DNA of 64,000 nt from an uncultured bacterium. Its GTDB lineage: Bacteria > Chlamydiota > Chlamydiia > Chlamydiales > Rhabdochlamydiaceae. Position numbers and translations under genes: made by a program. Positions 16,378 to 26,220 of the stretch are shown here, in pieces. Where the stretch lies: assembly GCA_964455905.1 (NCBI GenBank), contig CAYVYN010000001.1, positions 210,960-274,959 on the forward strand, given 5' to 3'. Below the pieces are notes generated by a model. The model made no database searches and was not told the DNA's origin. It worked only from the letters and a program-made list of their open reading frames with translations. Position 1 is the stretch's first letter; every line of letters starts with the position of its first letter.

Positions 16378-16621
16378 AAAAAAATTACACATTGGTTTTT
16401 TTTGATAAGAAACAAACACACAAAAAACAACTCTTTGAGCACAATTTCTCAAAAAATGAACGCCTTTTGTAAATAGAAAATGTACAAGTAAATTCCTGAG
16501 GCTATAGATGATATGGGTTAAATTCAAAAGAATTTTTATGTATATTTTAAATAACGCTTGAGAACTTTATGAACTCTATGTAAAGTCTAAACTAGCTTAA
16601 CATTTAGTTTTTAACAAGAAT

Positions 16622-19600
16622 ATGGCACTATCAAACACCTTATCAACGTCCTGCACCTCAGATAAAGCAGAACCTTCTATTGAAAAAAGCATTTCCCTGC
16701 CGTTAAAAATTGAACCAATTTTACCGTATGCGATGCATTCTCCTGAAATCGTTGCTCATGTAAAAGAGATGGAGCAAATCGTTGTAAAGTGTATTCCTCC
16801 TTTTTTCTTTCAAAAAACAACGTCCTTCTTTCAAACCAATCTACTTACTGAACTTCCGATTCTTAGCTGGGAAAAACCAGAAAGTTCCCCCGGGTGCATA
16901 GAACTGTCTTTACTTTGCCTTTCTTCAAAAGAAGATTCTACGGCAACTAAAATTGAATCCATCCTAAAAGAATGGGTTGTTCCTGGAAAAACTACAACTC
17001 TTCTATCCATCAAATCTCTTTATTTTCATTGGGATCAGTTTTCAGATAAATCTTTTCTTGTACTAAACGCTAAATGCTTAATAGAAAGTGAAAAAGACCT
17101 AAATAAGGCACTTACTTTACTCCCTTCTTTTTCGATGCAGCTGACTTCCTGTCTAAAAAGCCCTCACTCATTAAAAGATTTTTTTTCTTTAAGACCTCTT
17201 CTTCAAGAATTCAAACAAACTCAAGTGCACCAGCAACTTGTTCTTCTGATAGAAAAACTCCCCCTGCTCTTTAGCTCAGACCTATTTCTTGAAATGAGTC
17301 GTTTTTTTTCTTTATGCCCAAAATCCTTTTGCGATCCCAGAGCTCCGAGATTAATTACAAAAATTTTGGCTTTTCATTTTTTGATGAGAACCAATCTTCT
17401 TCGCCTAATTTCACTTTTCCCGGAAAAAAAACACCTTGAAATACGCTATATTAGAACTAACCTTACATTTCCCTTCGGCTCAAAACCCGTTGTAGGACTC
17501 GTTTTAGGAATATCTCCGCTAGGGAGACACGAATTTTTTGAAGAATGCCATATTGCTCAAGCAACACAAATGATTCTTCCTGGAACTCGGATAGTCAAAG
17601 GTTCATTTTATACATACCAAGGACCGCAAGACCCTATTTGTACTTTATATCTCGAATTAGAAAAAAAAGATGGCACCTCCTTTTCTGCTACTGAAATAAA
17701 CCTCTTAAAACAAGACTTGGAAGAAAAACTTAAACGTTGTGTAGAAAAACTAGTCCCATCAGTCTTTATGGCTCGCAACGAAGAAGAGACCATGCGAAAC
17801 ATCCTAATACTCAGCCAAGAATTAAAAAGACTATCAGACTTACCACAAGTAATGATTTCCCTTGATTCGCATACAACCTCAGAAATTTCTTTTACAATTA
17901 TACTGGTTAGAATTTTAAAGCCCGGAACCCCCTCTCTTGCCAAAAATTTTACAACTTTAAAATCTGAGGCTTTATTTGTATCAGATCGAGTACAACAAGT
18001 AGGTTTTTTAAAAAAGACAACACCAAAAGAAGCCCACGTTTTTCATCTTCGCTTCCCTAAAAGCAGCAATCTTTTGCGAGCAGATAACTCGGTTAATTTT
18101 TATTTAGCAAGAAGTCGAGCTTCCTCTATTTTGCTAGAAGCAATCGGGCCTTTTAGAGATTATAACGGGGGAATGATCCTGAAACAAGGAGAGCTCTTCT
18201 ATCAATTTCAAGATGCATTTTCTACTATTTCAGAAAAAAACCCAGAACTATTAGAGAATTTTTTCTTTTCTTTGAACCCTATTGAAGTCCAAGCAACTTT
18301 ACCGCTCTTGTCATTAGAAATACTTTTCAACCAATTTTTAGAAGCTCAAAAAACAAAACCTATACAAAAAGAAGACTACTTCATAAAAATTGAAGAACAC
18401 AAAAAGCAACTCTTCACAACAATACGCATACAAGACGTATCATTCAAAGAAGAACTTTTTTCTGCTCTTGCAGCACAAGGACTCTACTCCAAATCGCTTG
18501 TCCAAAGTTCAATTCAGATGCAAGGATCTCTTTACGTAAGCATCGTATTTCCTCACGTAGATGACAAAAAACAAAATCTAATTATCGCTACACTTCACGA
18601 AGCAATCAAAAAATGGGTTCTTAAAATTCAAAATCAACAAGTTTTAAATCTTAGCTTTTTAGAACTTCCACAATCACTAGATCCTAGACTTGCCGGAGAT
18701 GACTACTCTCACACAATTACAAAAATGCTTTTTGAAGGATTAACAAGACTTTCTGAGACAGGAAAACCAGAACTTGCTGCAGCAAGATCTGTAGAAATCT
18801 CTAAAGATTTAAAAAGTTATTTATTCAAACTCAAAAAATGTTACTGGTCTGATGGGTCTCCTGTTTGCGCGCAAGACTTTGCTTACACCTGGAAAAAAAT
18901 TCTATCGCCAGATTTTACAACAGCATTTGCTCACGTTTTCTACCCTATTAAAAATGCTAGGGCCGCTAAAGAAAACCGTTGCTCTATTGAAGATGTGGGT
19001 ATTACGGTACTAGGAGACTATTCTTTACTCGTAGAATTAGAACACCCAACTCCCGAATTTCTAGAACTTACAGCCTATTCCACATACTCTCCTGTGCATC
19101 ACATTATAGATAAAATACACCCTAACTGGAGTATTGGACGATTAGAAGATTTTGTTTGTAACGGACCTTTTGTTATAAAAAAAATCACTAACCACACAAG
19201 CTATGAATTAACCAAAAATTCGTTTTATTGGGATAAAGACCACATTCGCCTACAGAAAATTCTACTATCCAAAAACACAACGCTCGTAGCGAATGAAATG
19301 TTTAAAAATGACGAAATTCACTGGCTAGGTCGACCTATGCATCCTTGGGAAGGCTCCTCTAATGGAATTTCAGAATCATTCACAGTTTCTGCCCCAATAG
19401 GTATTCACTGGTGCATCTTTAATACCGAAAAATTTCCATTCAATAACGCGAACCTCAGACGGGCTTTTGATCTTGCAATCGATAAAAATGACCTCACAAA
19501 AAAAATACCCTATGAACACTTACCTGCATCAACTCCTCTTCCACTCTCCCACACCCTTAATCATTCCGAAGAAAGAACTTTAGGAAATGAAAGTAAAGCA

Positions 19601-20137
19601 CTAGAGCTCTTCGAGCTGGCCTTAGAAGAACTCGGTCTTTCGAGAAAAACATTCCCGCTCCTTACGTTAAATTTCACGAATACGCCCTTAAGAAAAAGCA
19701 TTGCATCCTATATTACAAAAAGATGGAAAGATCTCTTTCAAATTTCTTGTAGATCAGAAGGATTCAACTTCAATACTCTTTTTGGAAAAATTTTAAAAGG
19801 TGACTTTCAAGCAACGTGTATGTCTTGGAAACCTCACGTTAACACACCTGGATTCACTCTAAACGCATTTAAATACGGTAATCAAGATATTAACTTTGCA
19901 AAATGGGCAAATCCTAAATTTCAAAAACTATTAGAGCTAGAAAGAGAGGAACTTGATCCCATAGAAAAAATCAAGCTGCTTTCCGAAGCCGAACAACTTT
20001 TAATACAAGAGGTTCCTTTATTTTCTCTTTTTTATGAAAGAGAACAAAATATAAAAAAGAATCACCTCCACCAAGTAGTATATTCTAGAACTACAGGGCT
20101 TGTTGATTTTAAATACGCCTATCTAGAAAGGAGATGA
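16622..20137 (+). CDS. Fusion protein: unknown ~670-aa N-terminal region plus family-5 (OppA/DppA-type) solute-binding domain
   Basis: The C-terminal part, from about nt 18630, has LDPRLAGDDYSHTITKMLFEGLTR...YWSDGSPVCAQDFAYTWKKILSP, typical of SBP_bac_5. No signal peptide is visible at the N-terminus. Confidence 0.7.
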   Translation: MALSNTLSTSCTSDKAEPSIEKSISLPLKIEPILPYAMHSPEIVAHVKEMEQIVVKCIPPFFFQKTTSFFQTNLLTELPILSWEKPESSPGCIELSLLCLSSKEDSTATKIESILKEWVVPGKTTTLLSIKSLYFHWDQFSDKSFLVLNAKCLIESEKDLNKALTLLPSFSMQLTSCLKSPHSLKDFFSLRPLLQEFKQTQVHQQLVLLIEKLPLLFSSDLFLEMSRFFSLCPKSFCDPRAPRLITKILAFHFLMRTNLLRLISLFPEKKHLEIRYIRTNLTFPFGSKPVVGLVLGISPLGRHEFFEECHIAQATQMILPGTRIVKGSFYTYQGPQDPICTLYLELEKKDGTSFSATEINLLKQDLEEKLKRCVEKLVPSVFMARNEEETMRNILILSQELKRLSDLPQVMISLDSHTTSEISFTIILVRILKPGTPSLAKNFTTLKSEALFVSDRVQQVGFLKKTTPKEAHVFHLRFPKSSNLLRADNSVNFYLARSRASSILLEAIGPFRDYNGGMILKQGELFYQFQDAFSTISEKNPELLENFFFSLNPIEVQATLPLLSLEILFNQFLEAQKTKPIQKEDYFIKIEEHKKQLFTTIRIQDVSFKEELFSALAAQGLYSKSLVQSSIQMQGSLYVSIVFPHVDDKKQNLIIATLHEAIKKWVLKIQNQQVLNLSFLELPQSLDPRLAGDDYSHTITKMLFEGLTRLSETGKPELAAARSVEISKDLKSYLFKLKKCYWSDGSPVCAQDFAYTWKKILSPDFTTAFAHVFYPIKNARAAKENRCSIEDVGITVLGDYSLLVELEHPTPEFLELTAYSTYSPVHHIIDKIHPNWSIGRLEDFVCNGPFVIKKITNHTSYELTKNSFYWDKDHIRLQKILLSKNTTLVANEMFKNDEIHWLGRPMHPWEGSSNGISESFTVSAPIGIHWCIFNTEKFPFNNANLRRAFDLAIDKNDLTKKIPYEHLPASTPLPLSHTLNHSEERTLGNESKALELFELALEELGLSRKTFPLLTLNFTNTPLRKSIASYITKRWKDLFQISCRSEGFNFNTLFGKILKGDFQATCMSWKPHVNTPGFTLNAFKYGNQDINFAKWANPKFQKLLELEREELDPIEKIKLLSEAEQLLIQEVPLFSLFYEREQNIKKNHLHQVVYSRTTGLVDFKYAYLERR

Positions 20138-20189
20138 TTATTTTGTTGAAAACAAAAAATTTACATAAACTTATAACTATAGGTGAAAT

Positions 20190-20516
20190 ATGTTAGTAAA
20201 TCTAAAAACAGAAGATGCTAGACTTAATAAAAAAAACCCACTTACAATAGCTTTTCATCCTGATGTTCAAAATTCTTTTGATGCTGAAAGGAAATTAAAA
20301 GATGCTCCGATAGGCTCTTTTTTAACTTTCTCTACCGACGATAAACGTAACTACTGCTCTGCTGTCTGGGAAAATGGAGAAATTGTGACAAATCCACTTC
20401 ATTGGGATGTATCAGGAAGCTGGAAAAATGGTACAGGCGGCCCTTTTGCAACAGTTGAAGATCTTTTAGACCACTTAGTGAATGGCCTTATTCCTATAGC
20501 TTTTACAACCTATTAA
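20190..20516 (+). CDS. Small hypothetical protein with an SH2-like sequence pattern
   Basis: 108 aa. FHPDV..FDAERKL..PIGSFLTFSTDDKRNYCSAV...FATVEDLLDHL parallels the SH2 layout (W.F.G...AE.LL...GTFLVRES....Y.LSV...F.SL.ELV.HY). A strong terminator follows. Confidence 0.35.
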   Translation: MLVNLKTEDARLNKKNPLTIAFHPDVQNSFDAERKLKDAPIGSFLTFSTDDKRNYCSAVWENGEIVTNPLHWDVSGSWKNGTGGPFATVEDLLDHLVNGLIPIAFTTY

Positions 20517-20525
20517 TTAAGTCAA

Positions 20526-20553
20526 AGAGCCCCTTCATAAAGGGGCTCTTTTT
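20526..20553 (+). terminator. Rho-independent terminator
   Basis: AGAGCCCCTT-cataa-AGGGGCTCT followed by TTTTT. Confidence 0.7.
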
Positions 20554-20627
20554 ATCTTCTTATTAATTCTCTATAATTACATTTTTTTGATCAAAAAATT
20601 CCCATTAGAAAGTTCTGTTTACTCTAA

Positions 20628-21620: not shown

Positions 21621-21648
21621 TTGACAAAAAACTTGTGGATTATATAAT
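21621..21648 (+). promoter_or_regulatory. Near-consensus sigma-70-type promoter
   Basis: TTGACA (21621-21626), 16-nt spacer, TATAAT (21643-21648). It overlaps the ORF-track GTG start at 21635. Confidence 0.55.
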
Positions 21649-21691
21649 CGCAAAAAAATTACCGTCTATCTCATATCCTATGGTGAGCCTC

Positions 21692-24358
21692 ATGATTAAA
21701 AATTCTTATAAAATAGCTAAACAACTGTCTCTTTGCTGCAGTTCTCTAATACTTCTTTCTCTTGTTCAAGGAAAAACTTCTTCCCAAGACCTTTCTTTGC
21801 TAAAACGTGTTAAAGAGCACTGGAAGGAAGGCGACTACTCTTTAGCAAAAAAACAAATCCAAACCTACCTCAATAAGAACCCTACCGCTGAACTCTCAGA
21901 AGAGCTCCATTTACTTTTAGGTGATATTTACTTTCAAGAAGGCAATTTCACAATTGCTTTAGAAGAATACAACCAAATAGAAAGAACCGATCTTTTAGAA
22001 AAAGCTCAATACAATAAGGCTCTCTGTTTATACGAAAATAAAAAAATCGATGAGCTCTATTCATTAACCCAATCAACTTCGTTCCTTTTAAACTTAAATA
22101 ACGAAGAAAAAAATTCAATCTTATACCTTACAGCTTCATCTCTTTTTACATTACAAAAAACAACAGACCAATCTCCTGAAAAAGACTTGCTAAATAAAGC
22201 AAGAATACTCTTCGAAGAATGTTTAAAAAGTAACTTCGCTAAAAACTCCCTACCACTTCTTGCAGAAATTTACATATTACAAAAAGAAAATGCTAGAGCC
22301 GCTAACTGTTATCTTGCATTAGCTAGCGAAAACCCCTCTGAAAAAGCAGACCTGACGTCTGCTGCAGCTCTTCTTCTTGCCGATACAGACCCAAGCCAAG
22401 CTTTAGAACTCATACAATCGATCCTACCGCTGGATTCAGCGCAAAAAGCTGCAACTGTCTTCAACTGTATTGTCCTAGAATATCAACTAAAACAATTTAA
22501 AGAAGTAGTGGACACCTATAAAAAACATGAATCTTTTATTAATTCAGAAACAGAACGCACGACAAATTACTTAGTAGGAAAAAGCCTATACTATTTAACT
22601 GACTACAAAGAAGCTCCGATATATCTACTAAAAACGCTAGAAGACGGCAACTCTTCTCTTTCCAGCAAAAAAACAGCCTATCTTATGCTTTTAGATTGCG
22701 CGTACAAAACACAAAACATCTATCTATATAAAGAAGTTTGGAAGAACACAAATTTTCTTACGGAAAATACAGATGATCCCAAAATCCATTTAGCGTATTT
22801 AGATCTTTTAAAATTATATGAAAAAAAAGAAGAACTCATAGAGGAATCGAGAGCCTTTTTAGCTAAGTATCCAGAAAATCTTGAAGAAGATAAGGTTCAT
22901 CTAAATCTAACTTATGCACTCTATGATTCCGAAAACTGGGAGCAAACAGAAAGTCTTATTACCGATTTTCTAGAAAAACACAGTAATCATCCTTCAAAAA
23001 CCAACCTTTTAAGGCTAAAAGTCAACTGCGCTAGTAAACAATTACAAAATTCTTCTAGTGAAAAACTTTCGGACCTGGAAAACCATTGGATTGCCGTCTT
23101 AGAAAACACCTTAGAAAATCCAGGTGTATTTTCCTCAGAAGAAAAAGAAAACTACCAACTTGAATTAATTAAGAATCTATTTAAAAAAGAGCAATTCTCT
23201 AAGACCTTAGAAACAATTGAAAAATTTCAAACAGAATTTTCCACAAGAGCATCTAACTATGACGTGCAACTAATGAAAGCTCTTTGCTATTTAAAAGATC
23301 CCGAAGCTAAACTTCTTTTTGCTTTGCACGCTGAAAAACTGCTACAAAACTACGAACAAAATGGAGATTTTCCTTCTTTAAGACTACATCTTTTTAATAC
23401 CTATCTAAAATTGGCTGATGAGTCTCTCCTTCAAACAAAAAATGATCTATTAGAAAAAGCAGCCAACCACCTATTTTACATCTTTCAAAATAAAGAAAAT
23501 CCAATAAAAGATGAAAACATAAAATGGCTTACAGATTATTATTATAAAAATGCAGAACACTCATTAATAGCACTAGACAGAGCAAATTTATTACTTGAAC
23601 ATCTTGTAAATAACACTCCAGCTAATCAAAAAATAAACGAAACTACCGTATATAAATTATGTAAAATTCTTTCTTACAAATCCGAGAATGAAAAAAAACT
23701 AGAACTACTTGATAAATGTATAACCGCTAACAATCTTTCCTCAAATCCAGAAACAAACCTGCAAAAAGAGCTTTTTTTCGAACTAGCCAAAACTAGTCAA
23801 CAACTCGGTAAAACAGAAAAAGCATTGGATCTTTATGACACATTAATTCGAAGCTGCGACTCTTCTTTAATCGGCGCTATTTCACTTATTGAACGATCAA
23901 AACTTCTCTTTACTTATATGAAAACCGAAGAAAAAACAGAAAACAACCCCGTATGCTTAGAAATATTAAGCAACTTAAAAGATTTAGAAATGCGTCTAGA
24001 CCCATTGGTAGAACCTATCTGCTTAGAAGCTGGGCTAGAGTATATAACCTGTAAAACATCTCTTTCAGAAAATCAAGCAGAGTACAACCAAAAAACAGCA
24101 AACCTTTTTCGACTTTTTAAAGATACTTTCAGCTCTTCTCCTTTATACACTAAAGAAAACCTAGGAGAAAAATGGACTCTTGTAGATGCTTATATGAAAT
24201 TTGCTGAACTAGAAATTCTTCGCTTAGATGGTCTTTCTTTGGAAGATTGTAAAATTATTGACAATAAGCTAAAAGCATTAGAAAAAAACACAAATACACC
24301 TGAGTCCTTGAAAAACCGAATTCAAATAAGCCGTCGGGAGTTAAGCGAAAACCTATGA
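21692..24358 (+). CDS. Large secreted TPR-repeat protein
   Basis: Start placed at an ATG downstream of the promoter (alternative 21680). Signal-like MIKNSYKIAKQLSLCCSSLILLSLVQG. Many TPR-like units (LLLGDIYFQEGNFTIALEEY...). Confidence 0.65.
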   Translation: MIKNSYKIAKQLSLCCSSLILLSLVQGKTSSQDLSLLKRVKEHWKEGDYSLAKKQIQTYLNKNPTAELSEELHLLLGDIYFQEGNFTIALEEYNQIERTDLLEKAQYNKALCLYENKKIDELYSLTQSTSFLLNLNNEEKNSILYLTASSLFTLQKTTDQSPEKDLLNKARILFEECLKSNFAKNSLPLLAEIYILQKENARAANCYLALASENPSEKADLTSAAALLLADTDPSQALELIQSILPLDSAQKAATVFNCIVLEYQLKQFKEVVDTYKKHESFINSETERTTNYLVGKSLYYLTDYKEAPIYLLKTLEDGNSSLSSKKTAYLMLLDCAYKTQNIYLYKEVWKNTNFLTENTDDPKIHLAYLDLLKLYEKKEELIEESRAFLAKYPENLEEDKVHLNLTYALYDSENWEQTESLITDFLEKHSNHPSKTNLLRLKVNCASKQLQNSSSEKLSDLENHWIAVLENTLENPGVFSSEEKENYQLELIKNLFKKEQFSKTLETIEKFQTEFSTRASNYDVQLMKALCYLKDPEAKLLFALHAEKLLQNYEQNGDFPSLRLHLFNTYLKLADESLLQTKNDLLEKAANHLFYIFQNKENPIKDENIKWLTDYYYKNAEHSLIALDRANLLLEHLVNNTPANQKINETTVYKLCKILSYKSENEKKLELLDKCITANNLSSNPETNLQKELFFELAKTSQQLGKTEKALDLYDTLIRSCDSSLIGAISLIERSKLLFTYMKTEEKTENNPVCLEILSNLKDLEMRLDPLVEPICLEAGLEYITCKTSLSENQAEYNQKTANLFRLFKDTFSSSPLYTKENLGEKWTLVDAYMKFAELEILRLDGLSLEDCKIIDNKLKALEKNTNTPESLKNRIQISRRELSENL

Positions 24359-26220
24359 ATGAACCTACAAAGAACTTTTCCCATAAAACAGGTCTTTTAG
24401 CTAAATGCCTCCTAGCATCACTTGCGCTACACTCTGCTGCTATTTATTTTTTTATTCAATACCCAATTTCTATAAAAGAAATGGGCGATTCGTTTTTTCA
24501 AAATACCACTCCAATAGCAAAAGAGTTGGACCCCGATACTCTTTATGACCCAAAAGACTCCACTTTAGATGATTTTTTCGCAGAATTTGCAGCAAACCGG
24601 CCTACTCCAGCTCCCCAAACCTTAAAAGAAATTCTAGCAAAACACCCTCTTTTATTAGAAAATTCACAAGACCAATTTTTGGTTTCGACTTCTCAAATAT
24701 CTGGACTAGAAGAACACGTGAAAGAAAATCAGCCACTAGCCCCTGTAACTTTTACTTTTGAGCCCGAAGAGCCTATTGCGTTAGCTATTACCAACGTAGC
24801 CCCCTCTCAACCCCCTGTAACTACAGCCAATGCGAAATTCGAGTCCCCTAGCGCCTTTCTTCCTGCTGATGAATTTCTAATAGCTGCACCTCTCATAGAT
24901 GATAGAGTTTTATCTGAAAAAGATTTAAACGAACAATTGTCCACTCCTGATTTAGAAAATATCTCTACTTATAAAAATAGCGCGGTAACAAATACGTCCC
25001 CGTCCTTAGAAATGGAGGTTATTCGATCTAGCGAAAAATTAGCACGTCTATTCATGGCTAATGACGCCGAACAACCTTTATTGGAAAAACCTACCTACAC
25101 CTTTCCAAATAATGATGATACCATCTTCTCCTATCGACAAAATTCAACGCTCGAAATTGATGACTATCTTCCAACCAAGGCACTTTATTCATTAAAGTGG
25201 AATGATAACTTTGACATTAAGACCTCTTTTTTTCCTGATGGCGATAGCTACATTTTTTCTATCACAGTCACACCCACGCAAAATTTAGAAGAGGAACGAA
25301 TTAAACAAAACACCTACTTTCTTATAGATACTTCTTCTGAAATAGAAAAACACAAGATTACCGTATTTAAAAAATCTGTCTTCAAAGCCCTGTCCTCTCT
25401 GCAAGAAGGCGACTTTTTCAATATCTACCTTTTAGATAAAACGACCGAAAAACTCACTCCTTATAATCTTAAGGTTTCCTTACCAAATATTCGCTTAGCA
25501 CAAGAATTTCTAGAAAAACATCAAGAAAAACCTTTTTTTGCTTCATTTGATTTACTCAAAGGACTCCAAGAGACCTTAAAACAAATACCAGAAGATGATG
25601 AAGTCCATACAGTGATTTTACTTACAAACGGAAAGCTCACGTCAAATCCTTCGGTTACCAAAAAAGAAATCACTAAACTCTTAGAAAAAAATGAAGGAAA
25701 AATTAACTTATTCACTATAACTGCCGGTAAAAATAATAATATTGTCAACTTAGACATGCTCAGTTCCCTTTTCGGAGGAAAGCTTCTTTATTCAGACACT
25801 AATGCGTCTTTACCAAGAAAACTCGGTTCTTTTATAAAAAGCCTTCATTCTCCATTAATTAAAGATATATCTATTTCCTTAGAAACAGCAGATCCTAAAG
25901 CTAACATTTCCATTTTTCCTTTAAACACCAAAACGCCTAATTTACATCAAAAAGAGCCGTTTATCATTATGGGAAAAATAAACCGATTAACTCCAATTTC
26001 ACTCACGTTAGAAGGAAGAAATGAAGAAGGTTGGATTCTTTTACAAAAAGAGCTCGACTTTGAAATGGCCGAAGAATCCTCAAACGCAATAAAAAAAGAA
26101 TGGGAACTTCGTCAAACAGCTTCTTTATATGGGAAATTTCTAGAGGATTCTAAGTCCATCCATCTAAAAGAAGCAAAAGAAGTTTTAAAAACAGCTCACG
26201 GTAGGACTCTTGGAGAATGA
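24355..26220 (+). CDS. Membrane-anchored von Willebrand factor A (vWA) domain protein
   Basis: N-terminal TM (LLAKCLLASLALHSAAIYFFI). vWA/MIDAS YFLIDTSSE, DFFNIYLLD and VILLTNGK. ATGA overlap with the TPR gene. Confidence 0.7.
   Translation: MNEPTKNFSHKTGLLAKCLLASLALHSAAIYFFIQYPISIKEMGDSFFQNTTPIAKELDPDTLYDPKDSTLDDFFAEFAANRPTPAPQTLKEILAKHPLLLENSQDQFLVSTSQISGLEEHVKENQPLAPVTFTFEPEEPIALAITNVAPSQPPVTTANAKFESPSAFLPADEFLIAAPLIDDRVLSEKDLNEQLSTPDLENISTYKNSAVTNTSPSLEMEVIRSSEKLARLFMANDAEQPLLEKPTYTFPNNDDTIFSYRQNSTLEIDDYLPTKALYSLKWNDNFDIKTSFFPDGDSYIFSITVTPTQNLEEERIKQNTYFLIDTSSEIEKHKITVFKKSVFKALSSLQEGDFFNIYLLDKTTEKLTPYNLKVSLPNIRLAQEFLEKHQEKPFFASFDLLKGLQETLKQIPEDDEVHTVILLTNGKLTSNPSVTKKEITKLLEKNEGKINLFTITAGKNNNIVNLDMLSSLFGGKLLYSDTNASLPRKLGSFIKSLHSPLIKDISISLETADPKANISIFPLNTKTPNLHQKEPFIIMGKINRLTPISLTLEGRNEEGWILLQKELDFEMAEESSNAIKKEWELRQTASLYGKFLEDSKSIHLKEAKEVLKTAHGRTLGE

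Follow-up and report, generated by a model that had tools for sequence, protein, structure and literature searches.

The stretch of DNA analysed here comprises 64,000 nucleotides (nt) from an uncultured bacterium of the Rhabdochlamydiaceae (Chlamydiota; positions 210,960 to 274,959 of contig CAYVYN010000001.1, assembly GCA_964455905.1) and is referred to throughout as the window. On its forward strand it encodes a protein of 108 amino acids (aa) (20190..20516, +, 108 aa plus stop) that very probably has an SH2 fold and shares distant homology with SH2 domains, the classic phosphotyrosine readers of eukaryotes. It belongs to an old, syntenic and vertically inherited SH2 family found in part of the Chlamydiota, and its gene lies directly behind a gene for a protein of 1171 aa. 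Canonical binding of phosphotyrosine (pTyr) has probably been lost in the window protein, judging from the residues that line its pocket, and I give about an even chance to the explanation that it is a pTyr-independent SH2-fold binding module and the smaller member of a partnership with the 1171-aa protein encoded upstream.

Evidence for an SH2 fold

The 108-aa gene is real and under purifying selection, because the ratio of nonsynonymous to synonymous substitution rates (dN/dS) is 0.145 (dS 0.83) against an 81%-identical orthologue from the metagenome-assembled genome (MAG) GCA_964439595.1, which comes from a wastewater and river study. Its start codon is unambiguous: the ATG at 20190 encodes the sole Met, an in-frame TGA lies at 20184-20186, and a candidate ribosome-binding site, AGGTG (20181-20185), ends 4 nt before the ATG. 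A preliminary description of this DNA, made from the letters alone, had reported a 108-aa open reading frame (ORF) and quoted two strings from its translation; the ORF is present at 20190..20516 (+), and both strings match exactly, AFHPDVQNSFDAERKLKDAPIGSFLTFSTDDKRNYCSAV as residues 21-59 and PFATVEDLLDHL as residues 85-96. The protein is acidic (isoelectric point (pI) 5.2, net charge -4) and has no hydrophobic stretch fit for a signal peptide or membrane helix.

Searched alone, the window protein has no Pfam match even at E<=10 and no NCBIfam match, and phmmer against PDB sequences returned only a chance J-domain-like match (E 1.7). A word-indexed protein search, run with the single sequence and also with a family alignment (A3), found one orthologue and nothing further; a scan of a genome collection yielded only the same 81%-identical orthologue, and two metagenome scans (alignments A4 and A5) recovered no members. 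An exhaustive phmmer search of 1.84 billion representative proteins identified six more real relatives: three with a single domain (105-131 aa; P0004-P0006, E 1e-14 to 1e-17) and three with two domains in tandem (209-216 aa; P0007-P0009, E 3e-7 to 1e-9).

A family profile built from eight proteins (alignment A3) and compared with all PDB sequences matched 60 distinct sequences, every one of which is an SH2 sequence; the best match was the p85alpha C-SH2 domain (E 4.3e-6), followed by SHP2, SOCS1 and SYK. Furthermore, two of the relatives have Pfam SH2 (PF00017) as their best-matching family (E 3.6e-4 to 9.6e-4), with a maximum of 19.6 bits, which is under the 21-bit gathering score. Although this curated threshold is not passed, homology is still supported, because both the family profile and hhalign match SH2: hhalign of A3 against six canonical SH2 sequences gave a probability of 88% (E 3e-6) over 79 columns. 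The recognisable profile likeness extends from betaA to alphaB and includes AE..L in alphaA, G-[ST]-[FY]-L in betaB and L-[LV]..H in alphaB. The preliminary description had aligned the protein to the Src SH2 domain by eye, and hhalign and HMMER agree that its register was correct. A search of all ORFs of the window and of the fetched loci with a hidden Markov model (HMM) found no second SH2-like copy.

The exhaustive search also returned large repeat proteins (P0003 and P0010-P0013). P0003 was rejected as a spurious relative, its score arising from a 30-aa repeat at ~27 bits counted ~16 times. P0013, a PEP-CTERM protein of 185 aa, repeats the unit RWD.SGTLLNGFGSPF.TL at least three times; this unit, also given as WD.SG.L.NG.GSPF.TL, resembles residues 72-90 of the window protein (HWDVSGSWKNGTGGPFATV), a likeness that is probably due to chance or to a convergent beta-hairpin motif.

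Structure prediction points in the same direction as the profile searches. A first AlphaFold2 model, made from two sequences, was weak (predicted local distance difference test score, pLDDT, of 52) and was superseded by a run with an 11-row domain alignment, which reached a pLDDT of 83.4 and a predicted template-modelling score (pTM) of 0.73. In this model alphaA (residues 29-36), betaB (43-48), betaC (54-59), betaD (65-73), betaE (77-79) and alphaB (89-96) form a central antiparallel sheet between two helices, as in SH2 domains, and residues 1-14 are predicted to be disordered. Foldseek of the model against the PDB gave 160 matches at E<=1e-3, and the best 50 of these 160 are all SH2, with SHP2 N-SH2 (E 2.7e-5), Abl, Syk, ZAP-70, SOCS2, Src and RasGAP among them; the template-modelling (TM) scores of these 50 are 0.47-0.59, save for two mirror-image D-SH2 entries at 0.31. 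The top matches in a viral Foldseek library are likewise SH2 (ChoanoV1, African swine fever virus (ASFV) MGF100, v-Fgr and v-Crk). The preliminary description had proposed AlphaFold and Foldseek as a check, and had made its SH2 reading depend on finding SH2 matches in profile and structure searches; with a pLDDT of 83 and top matches that are all SH2, the outcome favours SH2.

Could the resemblance nevertheless be accidental, or the gene a decaying remnant? In favour of this, the single protein finds no match in Pfam, NCBIfam or the PDB, and the pLDDT of the first model was 52. However, the gene evolves at a dN/dS of 0.145 and has syntenic orthologues in many lineages, and profile, profile-profile and structure searches converge on SH2 alone. 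Selection, synteny and convergent SH2 matches together effectively exclude a pseudogene or a chance resemblance.

A conserved gene pair in Chlamydiota

The preliminary description had pictured an isolated gene, which is not what the locus looks like: the SH2-like gene is the second of a conserved pair, the first being the 1171-aa gene (16622..20137, +; Pfam SBP_bac_5). The product of the first gene contains an OppA-like SBP_bac_5 domain at residues 716-1088 (Pfam, E 7.8e-48). No signal peptide or transmembrane segment is predicted in it (the maximum Kyte-Doolittle hydropathy over 19 residues is 1.43), and substrate-binding proteins do not usually lack a signal peptide. The N-terminal half (~660 aa, 16622-18600, +) shows strong conservation, many of its residues being invariant at an overall identity of 30%, among them the stretches RNEEE.MRNIL, RDYNGGM and ENFFYSL, and has no match in Pfam or in phmmer and profile searches of the PDB; stand-alone ~660-aa versions of this half exist (P0125-P0133). 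The 1171-aa protein has more than 140 homologues, the named ones being mostly chlamydial (Chlamydiae, Rhabdochlamydiaceae at 47-48% identity, Simkaniaceae at 42%, Chlamydiales and Chlamydiota bacterium), and two are labelled Verrucomicrobia or Aerophobetes.

A small SH2-like gene lies directly downstream of, and on the same strand as, the ~1170-aa gene in 12 of the 13 lineages examined, and all eight family representatives show the pairing. The paired family lineages are that of the window, L001, L003/L004, L009 and L010, together with L005-L008, L011/L012 and L013, in which the SH2-like protein has tandem domains. Four further loci were reached by way of more remote relatives of the large protein. 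They lie in MAGs of the Rhabdochlamydiaceae (L014) and Simkaniaceae (L015), on a contig of 2.07 Mb (L016) and in a MAG labelled 'Aerophobetes' (L018). At each of them a small ORF (103-128 aa, no Pfam match) follows the large gene, and the pairing is kept even though the outer neighbours on both sides are entirely different. These four small ORFs match the window family in hhalign with a probability of 96.7% (E 4e-10) and in reciprocal HMM searches; their own profile finds only SH2 chains in the PDB (HSH2D, 9.7e-5), and hhalign against canonical SH2 gives 93.5%.

The window protein falls within the family as defined from alignments A3 and A7, that is, proteins of ~100-130 aa or tandem proteins of ~210 aa that share an invariant Asn and are encoded behind a ~1170-aa SBP_bac_5 fusion gene. 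Across lineages the SH2-like protein retains 31-46% identity, compared with 32-37% for EamA and 33-36% for a TPR protein encoded nearby; the ~1170-aa partner, at 52-63%, is above most of its neighbours, the exceptions being the response regulator and RsmD, which are as well conserved or better. The lineage is Chlamydiota, and the amoeba-adapted niche of the preliminary description is an assumption.

Two members of this distribution deserve separate mention. The sister clade (L005-L008 and L011-L013; P0007-P0009) has, at the same locus, a tandem SH2-like protein of 209-216 aa, neither domain of which carries an Arg at betaB5, the pTyr-clamping position considered below; the tandem form is reminiscent of the tandem SH2 domains of SHP2, Syk, ZAP-70 and Legionella DoSH. 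In L018 (NVUK01000039.1, labelled Candidatus Aerophobetes) an OppA-like fusion gene for a protein of ~1160 aa (30% identity) is followed by the SH2-like ORF, so either the pair extends beyond Chlamydiota or the label of the MAG is wrong.

The two genes are separated in the window by 52 nt (20138..20189, +), a gap that holds the AGGTG at 20181-20185 and contains no terminator and no promoter-like match. The equivalent gap measures 19-182 nt in relatives, with the 19 nt found in L003, and the gaps of three relatives contain no terminator-like or promoter-like site; across the paired family lineages listed above the spacing is 19-92 nt. Behind the SH2-like gene there is an intrinsic terminator (20524..20556, +), whose stem of 12 bp at 20524-20551 (6 G-C) is capped by a loop of 4 nt and followed by a T-rich tail. 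Its folding energy is -19.4 kcal/mol (z = -5.75), a value that 0 of 200 shuffled sequences equalled. Of the two statements made on this point in the preliminary description, the strong terminator stands, whereas 'monocistronic' is probably wrong, given the lack of a terminator in the 52-nt gap and a spacing of only 19 nt in L003. Because the gap has neither terminator nor promoter and a strong terminator follows the SH2-like gene, a single transcript is the simplest reading, and co-transcription with the 1171-aa gene appears fairly likely from this arrangement. The two-gene unit might start at a weak sigma-70-like promoter match, TTGAGA-17-TAAAGT (16558..16586, +; 9/12 consensus), within the 244 nt that precede the 1171-aa gene.

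The pairing raises the question of whether the small protein might be a secretion chaperone or escort for the 1171-aa protein, the latter being itself a type III substrate. A small acidic protein beside a large substrate is the usual arrangement of class I type III chaperones, and the window protein, with 108 aa and a pI of 5.2, adjoins a large protein that has no export signal. Against this, the alpha-beta-beta-beta-alpha-beta-beta-alpha dimer fold of the CesT/SycE type is not what is predicted, the Foldseek matches shown being SH2 only; the conservation of the large protein (52-63%) is atypical for an effector; and the tandem two-domain form of the sister lineages is unlike known chaperones. 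I therefore consider an escort role unlikely.

The phosphotyrosine pocket

Four independent alignments (HMMER with p85, hhalign with canonical SH2, hhalign with the distant chlamydial members, and a joint MAFFT alignment) agree in register. They place G42-S-F-L-T-F47-S of the window protein on G-T-F-L-V-R175-E of Src and its LLDHL on helix alphaB. F47 (codon TTC, 20328..20330, +) is the residue at betaB5, which in canonical SH2 domains is the pTyr-clamping Arg of FLVRES, and the replacement of this Arg that had been read from the string FLTFST is borne out by all four alignments. The rest of the pocket has changed too. At alphaA2 the canonical Arg is S29 in the window protein and at betaD6 the canonical Lys or Arg is P69, and at neither position is a basic residue found in any of the chlamydial members compared; at betaD4 the canonical His is T67, with His present in eight of the twelve chlamydial members. 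Because these pocket residues are non-basic and the net charge of the protein is negative, binding of pTyr in the canonical manner is unlikely, and it is reasonable to suppose, as the preliminary description did, that the protein may bind something other than pTyr.

The loss is not shared by the whole family. At betaB5 all eight close representatives have F or Y and L018 has Ser, whereas L014, L015 and L016 retain the Arg (in YLIR, YLLR and YMLR) along with the His at betaD4. Since these distant syntenic members keep the betaB5 Arg, its loss is specific to a clade and not family-wide, which makes the clade of the window a derived, Arg-less variant. N80 (codon 20427..20429, +), in a W-x-N-G motif at the end of betaE and in the EF loop, is invariant as Asn in 12 of 12 chlamydial members (within W/F/Y-x-N-G/A), where canonical SH2 carries I, L, V or A. 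This residue is a signature of the family and a candidate for contact with a ligand. That N80 and its motif are invariant while betaB5 varies among R, S, F and Y suggests that the conserved function of the chlamydial SH2-like family is independent of the pTyr clamp.

Phospho-residue binding could in principle have been retained through a non-canonical pocket, as in the C-SH2 of p120RasGAP or the SH2 of Spt6, and such recognition is documented (PMC7530234). In the window protein Lys52 and Arg53 of the BC loop adjoin the pocket, and L014, L015 and L016 keep both the betaB5 Arg and the betaD4 His. However, the four canonical basic or His positions are all non-basic in the window protein (S29, F47, T67 and P69), betaB5 is aromatic in 8 of 8 close representatives, the net charge is -4, and the basic pair of the BC loop is not conserved across the family. 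This makes a retained phospho-specific pocket very unlikely.

Comparison with known SH2 proteins

Eukaryotic SH2 domains (PF00017; SHP2 N-SH2, p85alpha C-SH2, Abl and SOCS) have the fold and the order of elements in common with the window protein. In contrast to them, the window protein has no Arg at betaB5 and no basic residue at alphaA2 or betaD6, has Thr for His at betaD4, is acidic, consists of nothing but the one domain, comes from a bacterial gene and scores below the Pfam gathering threshold. Among human SH2 domains only those of RIN2 (His), TYK2 (His) and SH2D5 (Trp) are listed in a review as lacking the FLVR Arg, and the Spt6 SH2 is described there as non-canonical (PMC7530234). In the Arg-less domains of TYK2/JAK, RIN2 and SH2D5 and in the C-terminal SH2 of Spt6 the fold is kept, the clamp is replaced and the ligand is not bound through the canonical pTyr pocket (PMC7530234), which is also the condition proposed here. 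These eukaryotic domains sit in large multidomain proteins, whereas the chlamydial F or Y is fixed across a clade and other pocket residues have been lost as well. The viral SH2-like proteins ChoanoV1 and African swine fever virus MGF100 are, like the window protein, small SH2-fold proteins of intracellular parasites (Foldseek E 1.3e-5 to 2.8e-4, TM 0.54-0.63); the likeness is structural, and the genomic context differs.

Closer to the window protein are two that NCBI names 'SH2 domain-containing protein', HSX04199.1 (from a Rhabdochlamydiaceae MAG) and MDN3505911.1 (Simkaniaceae / Ca. Sacchlamyda saccharinae). They are homologous to it, have 113-118 aa, occupy the same place behind a ~1160-aa OppA-like gene and share the invariant Asn; they differ in keeping the betaB5 Arg (YLIR and YLLR) and the betaD4 His, and share just ~20% identity with the window protein; searching directly with the sequence of the latter missed both. 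The clade of the window has no annotation at NCBI, and a literature search combining SH2 with Chlamydiae, Chlamydiota and chlamydial genera found, in the library searched, no paper that links SH2 domains with chlamydiae. The automatic naming of these two Arg-bearing relatives is the sole prior recognition of the family.

Previously, bacterial SH2 domains had been found confidently only in Legionellales, by a screen that required the betaB5 Arg (Kaneko et al., 2018; PMC6208348) and hence excluded Arg-less proteins; the same authors dropped two SH2-like proteins of uncultivated bacteria, UniProt K2BDF1 and K2EE31, that showed no binding to pTyr peptides. The Legionella precedent cited in the preliminary description holds, the proteins being LeSH, LUSH, RavO and DoSH (PMC6208348). 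These also have an SH2 fold and come from an intracellular bacterium, and some consist of SH2 only, with DoSH being double like the tandem proteins of the sister clade. However, Legionella SH2 domains have Arg at betaB5 and betaD6 and bind pTyr with very high affinity, clamping it by means of a large EF insert (PMC6208348), whereas the window protein has F47 and P69 and no EF insert, for which there is no room because only ~9 residues separate betaE (77-79) from alphaB (89-96). The secretion systems differ as well, type IV in Legionella and type III in chlamydiae, and no Legionella chain is among the PDB matches shown for the family profile or for Foldseek. Thus the bacterial SH2 fold and the Arg-less eukaryotic SH2 domain are both known, and what is new is an Arg-less, vertically inherited chlamydial clade tied to a partner gene.

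Legionella also provides the strongest reason to think of the window protein as a stand-alone type III effector, one which would mimic or compete with host SH2 adaptors and bind a non-pTyr ligand, its linkage to the 1171-aa gene being no more than inherited synteny. The SH2 module belongs to eukaryotic signalling, and those SH2 proteins of Legionella that have been characterised are effectors that undergo translocation (PMC6208348). Neither a Sec signal nor a transmembrane segment is seen in the window protein, its first ~14 residues are predicted to be disordered, as is usual for secretion signals, and the Foldseek matches listed are SH2 domains from eukaryotes or from viruses of eukaryotes. 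On the other hand, 12 of 13 lineages retain the pair, including those in which the outer flanks differ on both sides; the distribution gives the impression of vertical, syntenic descent, whereas the Legionella SH2 effectors are patchy; and the rate of change (31-46% identity) is not above that of neighbouring housekeeping-type genes. A free-standing effector is thus possible, although I regard it as doubtful.

Possible function

If the window protein is instead the small partner of the 1171-aa protein, the two genes would be read as one two-gene unit ended by the strong terminator, and the SH2-like protein would recognise a peptide or protein ligand independently of phosphotyrosine. It might then act as a small binding subunit or adaptor, which either binds a segment of the 1171-aa protein or shares a target with it. 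The pair could act inside the bacterium or reach the host through the type III secretion system that chlamydiae carry. On balance I lean slightly towards a functional partnership of the two proteins.

Several observations weigh against this explanation. L017 has the large gene without an SH2-like gene, and hence the large protein is not strictly dependent on a small one. Chlamydial genomes are strongly syntenic, so adjacency is weaker evidence of partnership than it would be in free-living bacteria, and there is no fusion of the two genes among 120 listed homologues of the large protein. Lys52 and Arg53 could still touch a phosphate group. Finally, the bacterial and viral SH2 domains studied so far all act in the eukaryotic host, which favours the effector alternative.

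A bolder version of the partnership, which I offer tentatively and think improbable as a whole, is that chlamydiae took up the SH2 fold at an early point in their evolution and have since retained it as a small, obligate companion of a conserved, non-exported OppA-like giant, its conserved job being something other than pTyr reading and the clamp Arg being dispensable and replaced several times. If true, it would be the first case of an SH2 fold integrated into a core module of a bacterium, as opposed to a host-mimicking effector.

Whichever role applies, the family would extend the SH2 fold to a second phylum of intracellular bacteria beyond Legionella, and it includes a whole clade that has aromatic or neutral residues in place of the pTyr pocket and yet, as the 108-aa gene indicates, is under purifying selection. 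The natural series at betaB5 (Arg, Ser, Phe/Tyr) lets one ask what role an SH2 fold can have without pTyr reading, and a complex with the 1171-aa protein is a testable hypothesis for two uncharacterised chlamydial proteins.

Other genes in the window

The product of 289-1689 (-) is an ATP/ADP (nucleotide) transporter of the TLC family; such transporters are a hallmark of bacteria with an obligate intracellular life, and this one supports the chlamydial assignment. In a 946-aa protein encoded at 3564-6404 (-), residues 602-780 form a protein kinase domain of eukaryotic type (Pfam Pkinase, E 5.6e-14), and the remainder is without a match. Downstream of the SH2-like gene, at 21635-26220 (+), two genes overlap by 4 nt, one for a TPR protein of 907 aa, whose BamD/YfiO-like matches are weak, and one for a 621-aa von Willebrand A-domain protein; this pair is kept downstream of the SH2-like locus in several lineages. 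The C-terminal ~125 residues of an 887-aa protein (26901-29564, -) match the model of the Leptospira LIC20035-family adhesin with E 5.9e-44, without reaching the cut-off of the family. The genes for GspF, GspE and GspD form a type II secretion cluster at 30577-35646 (-), with a 471-aa ORF (35639-37054) directly upstream. The window also codes for Tol-Pal and for a 562-aa RpoD that scores above the cut-off of a 571-position sigma-factor model.

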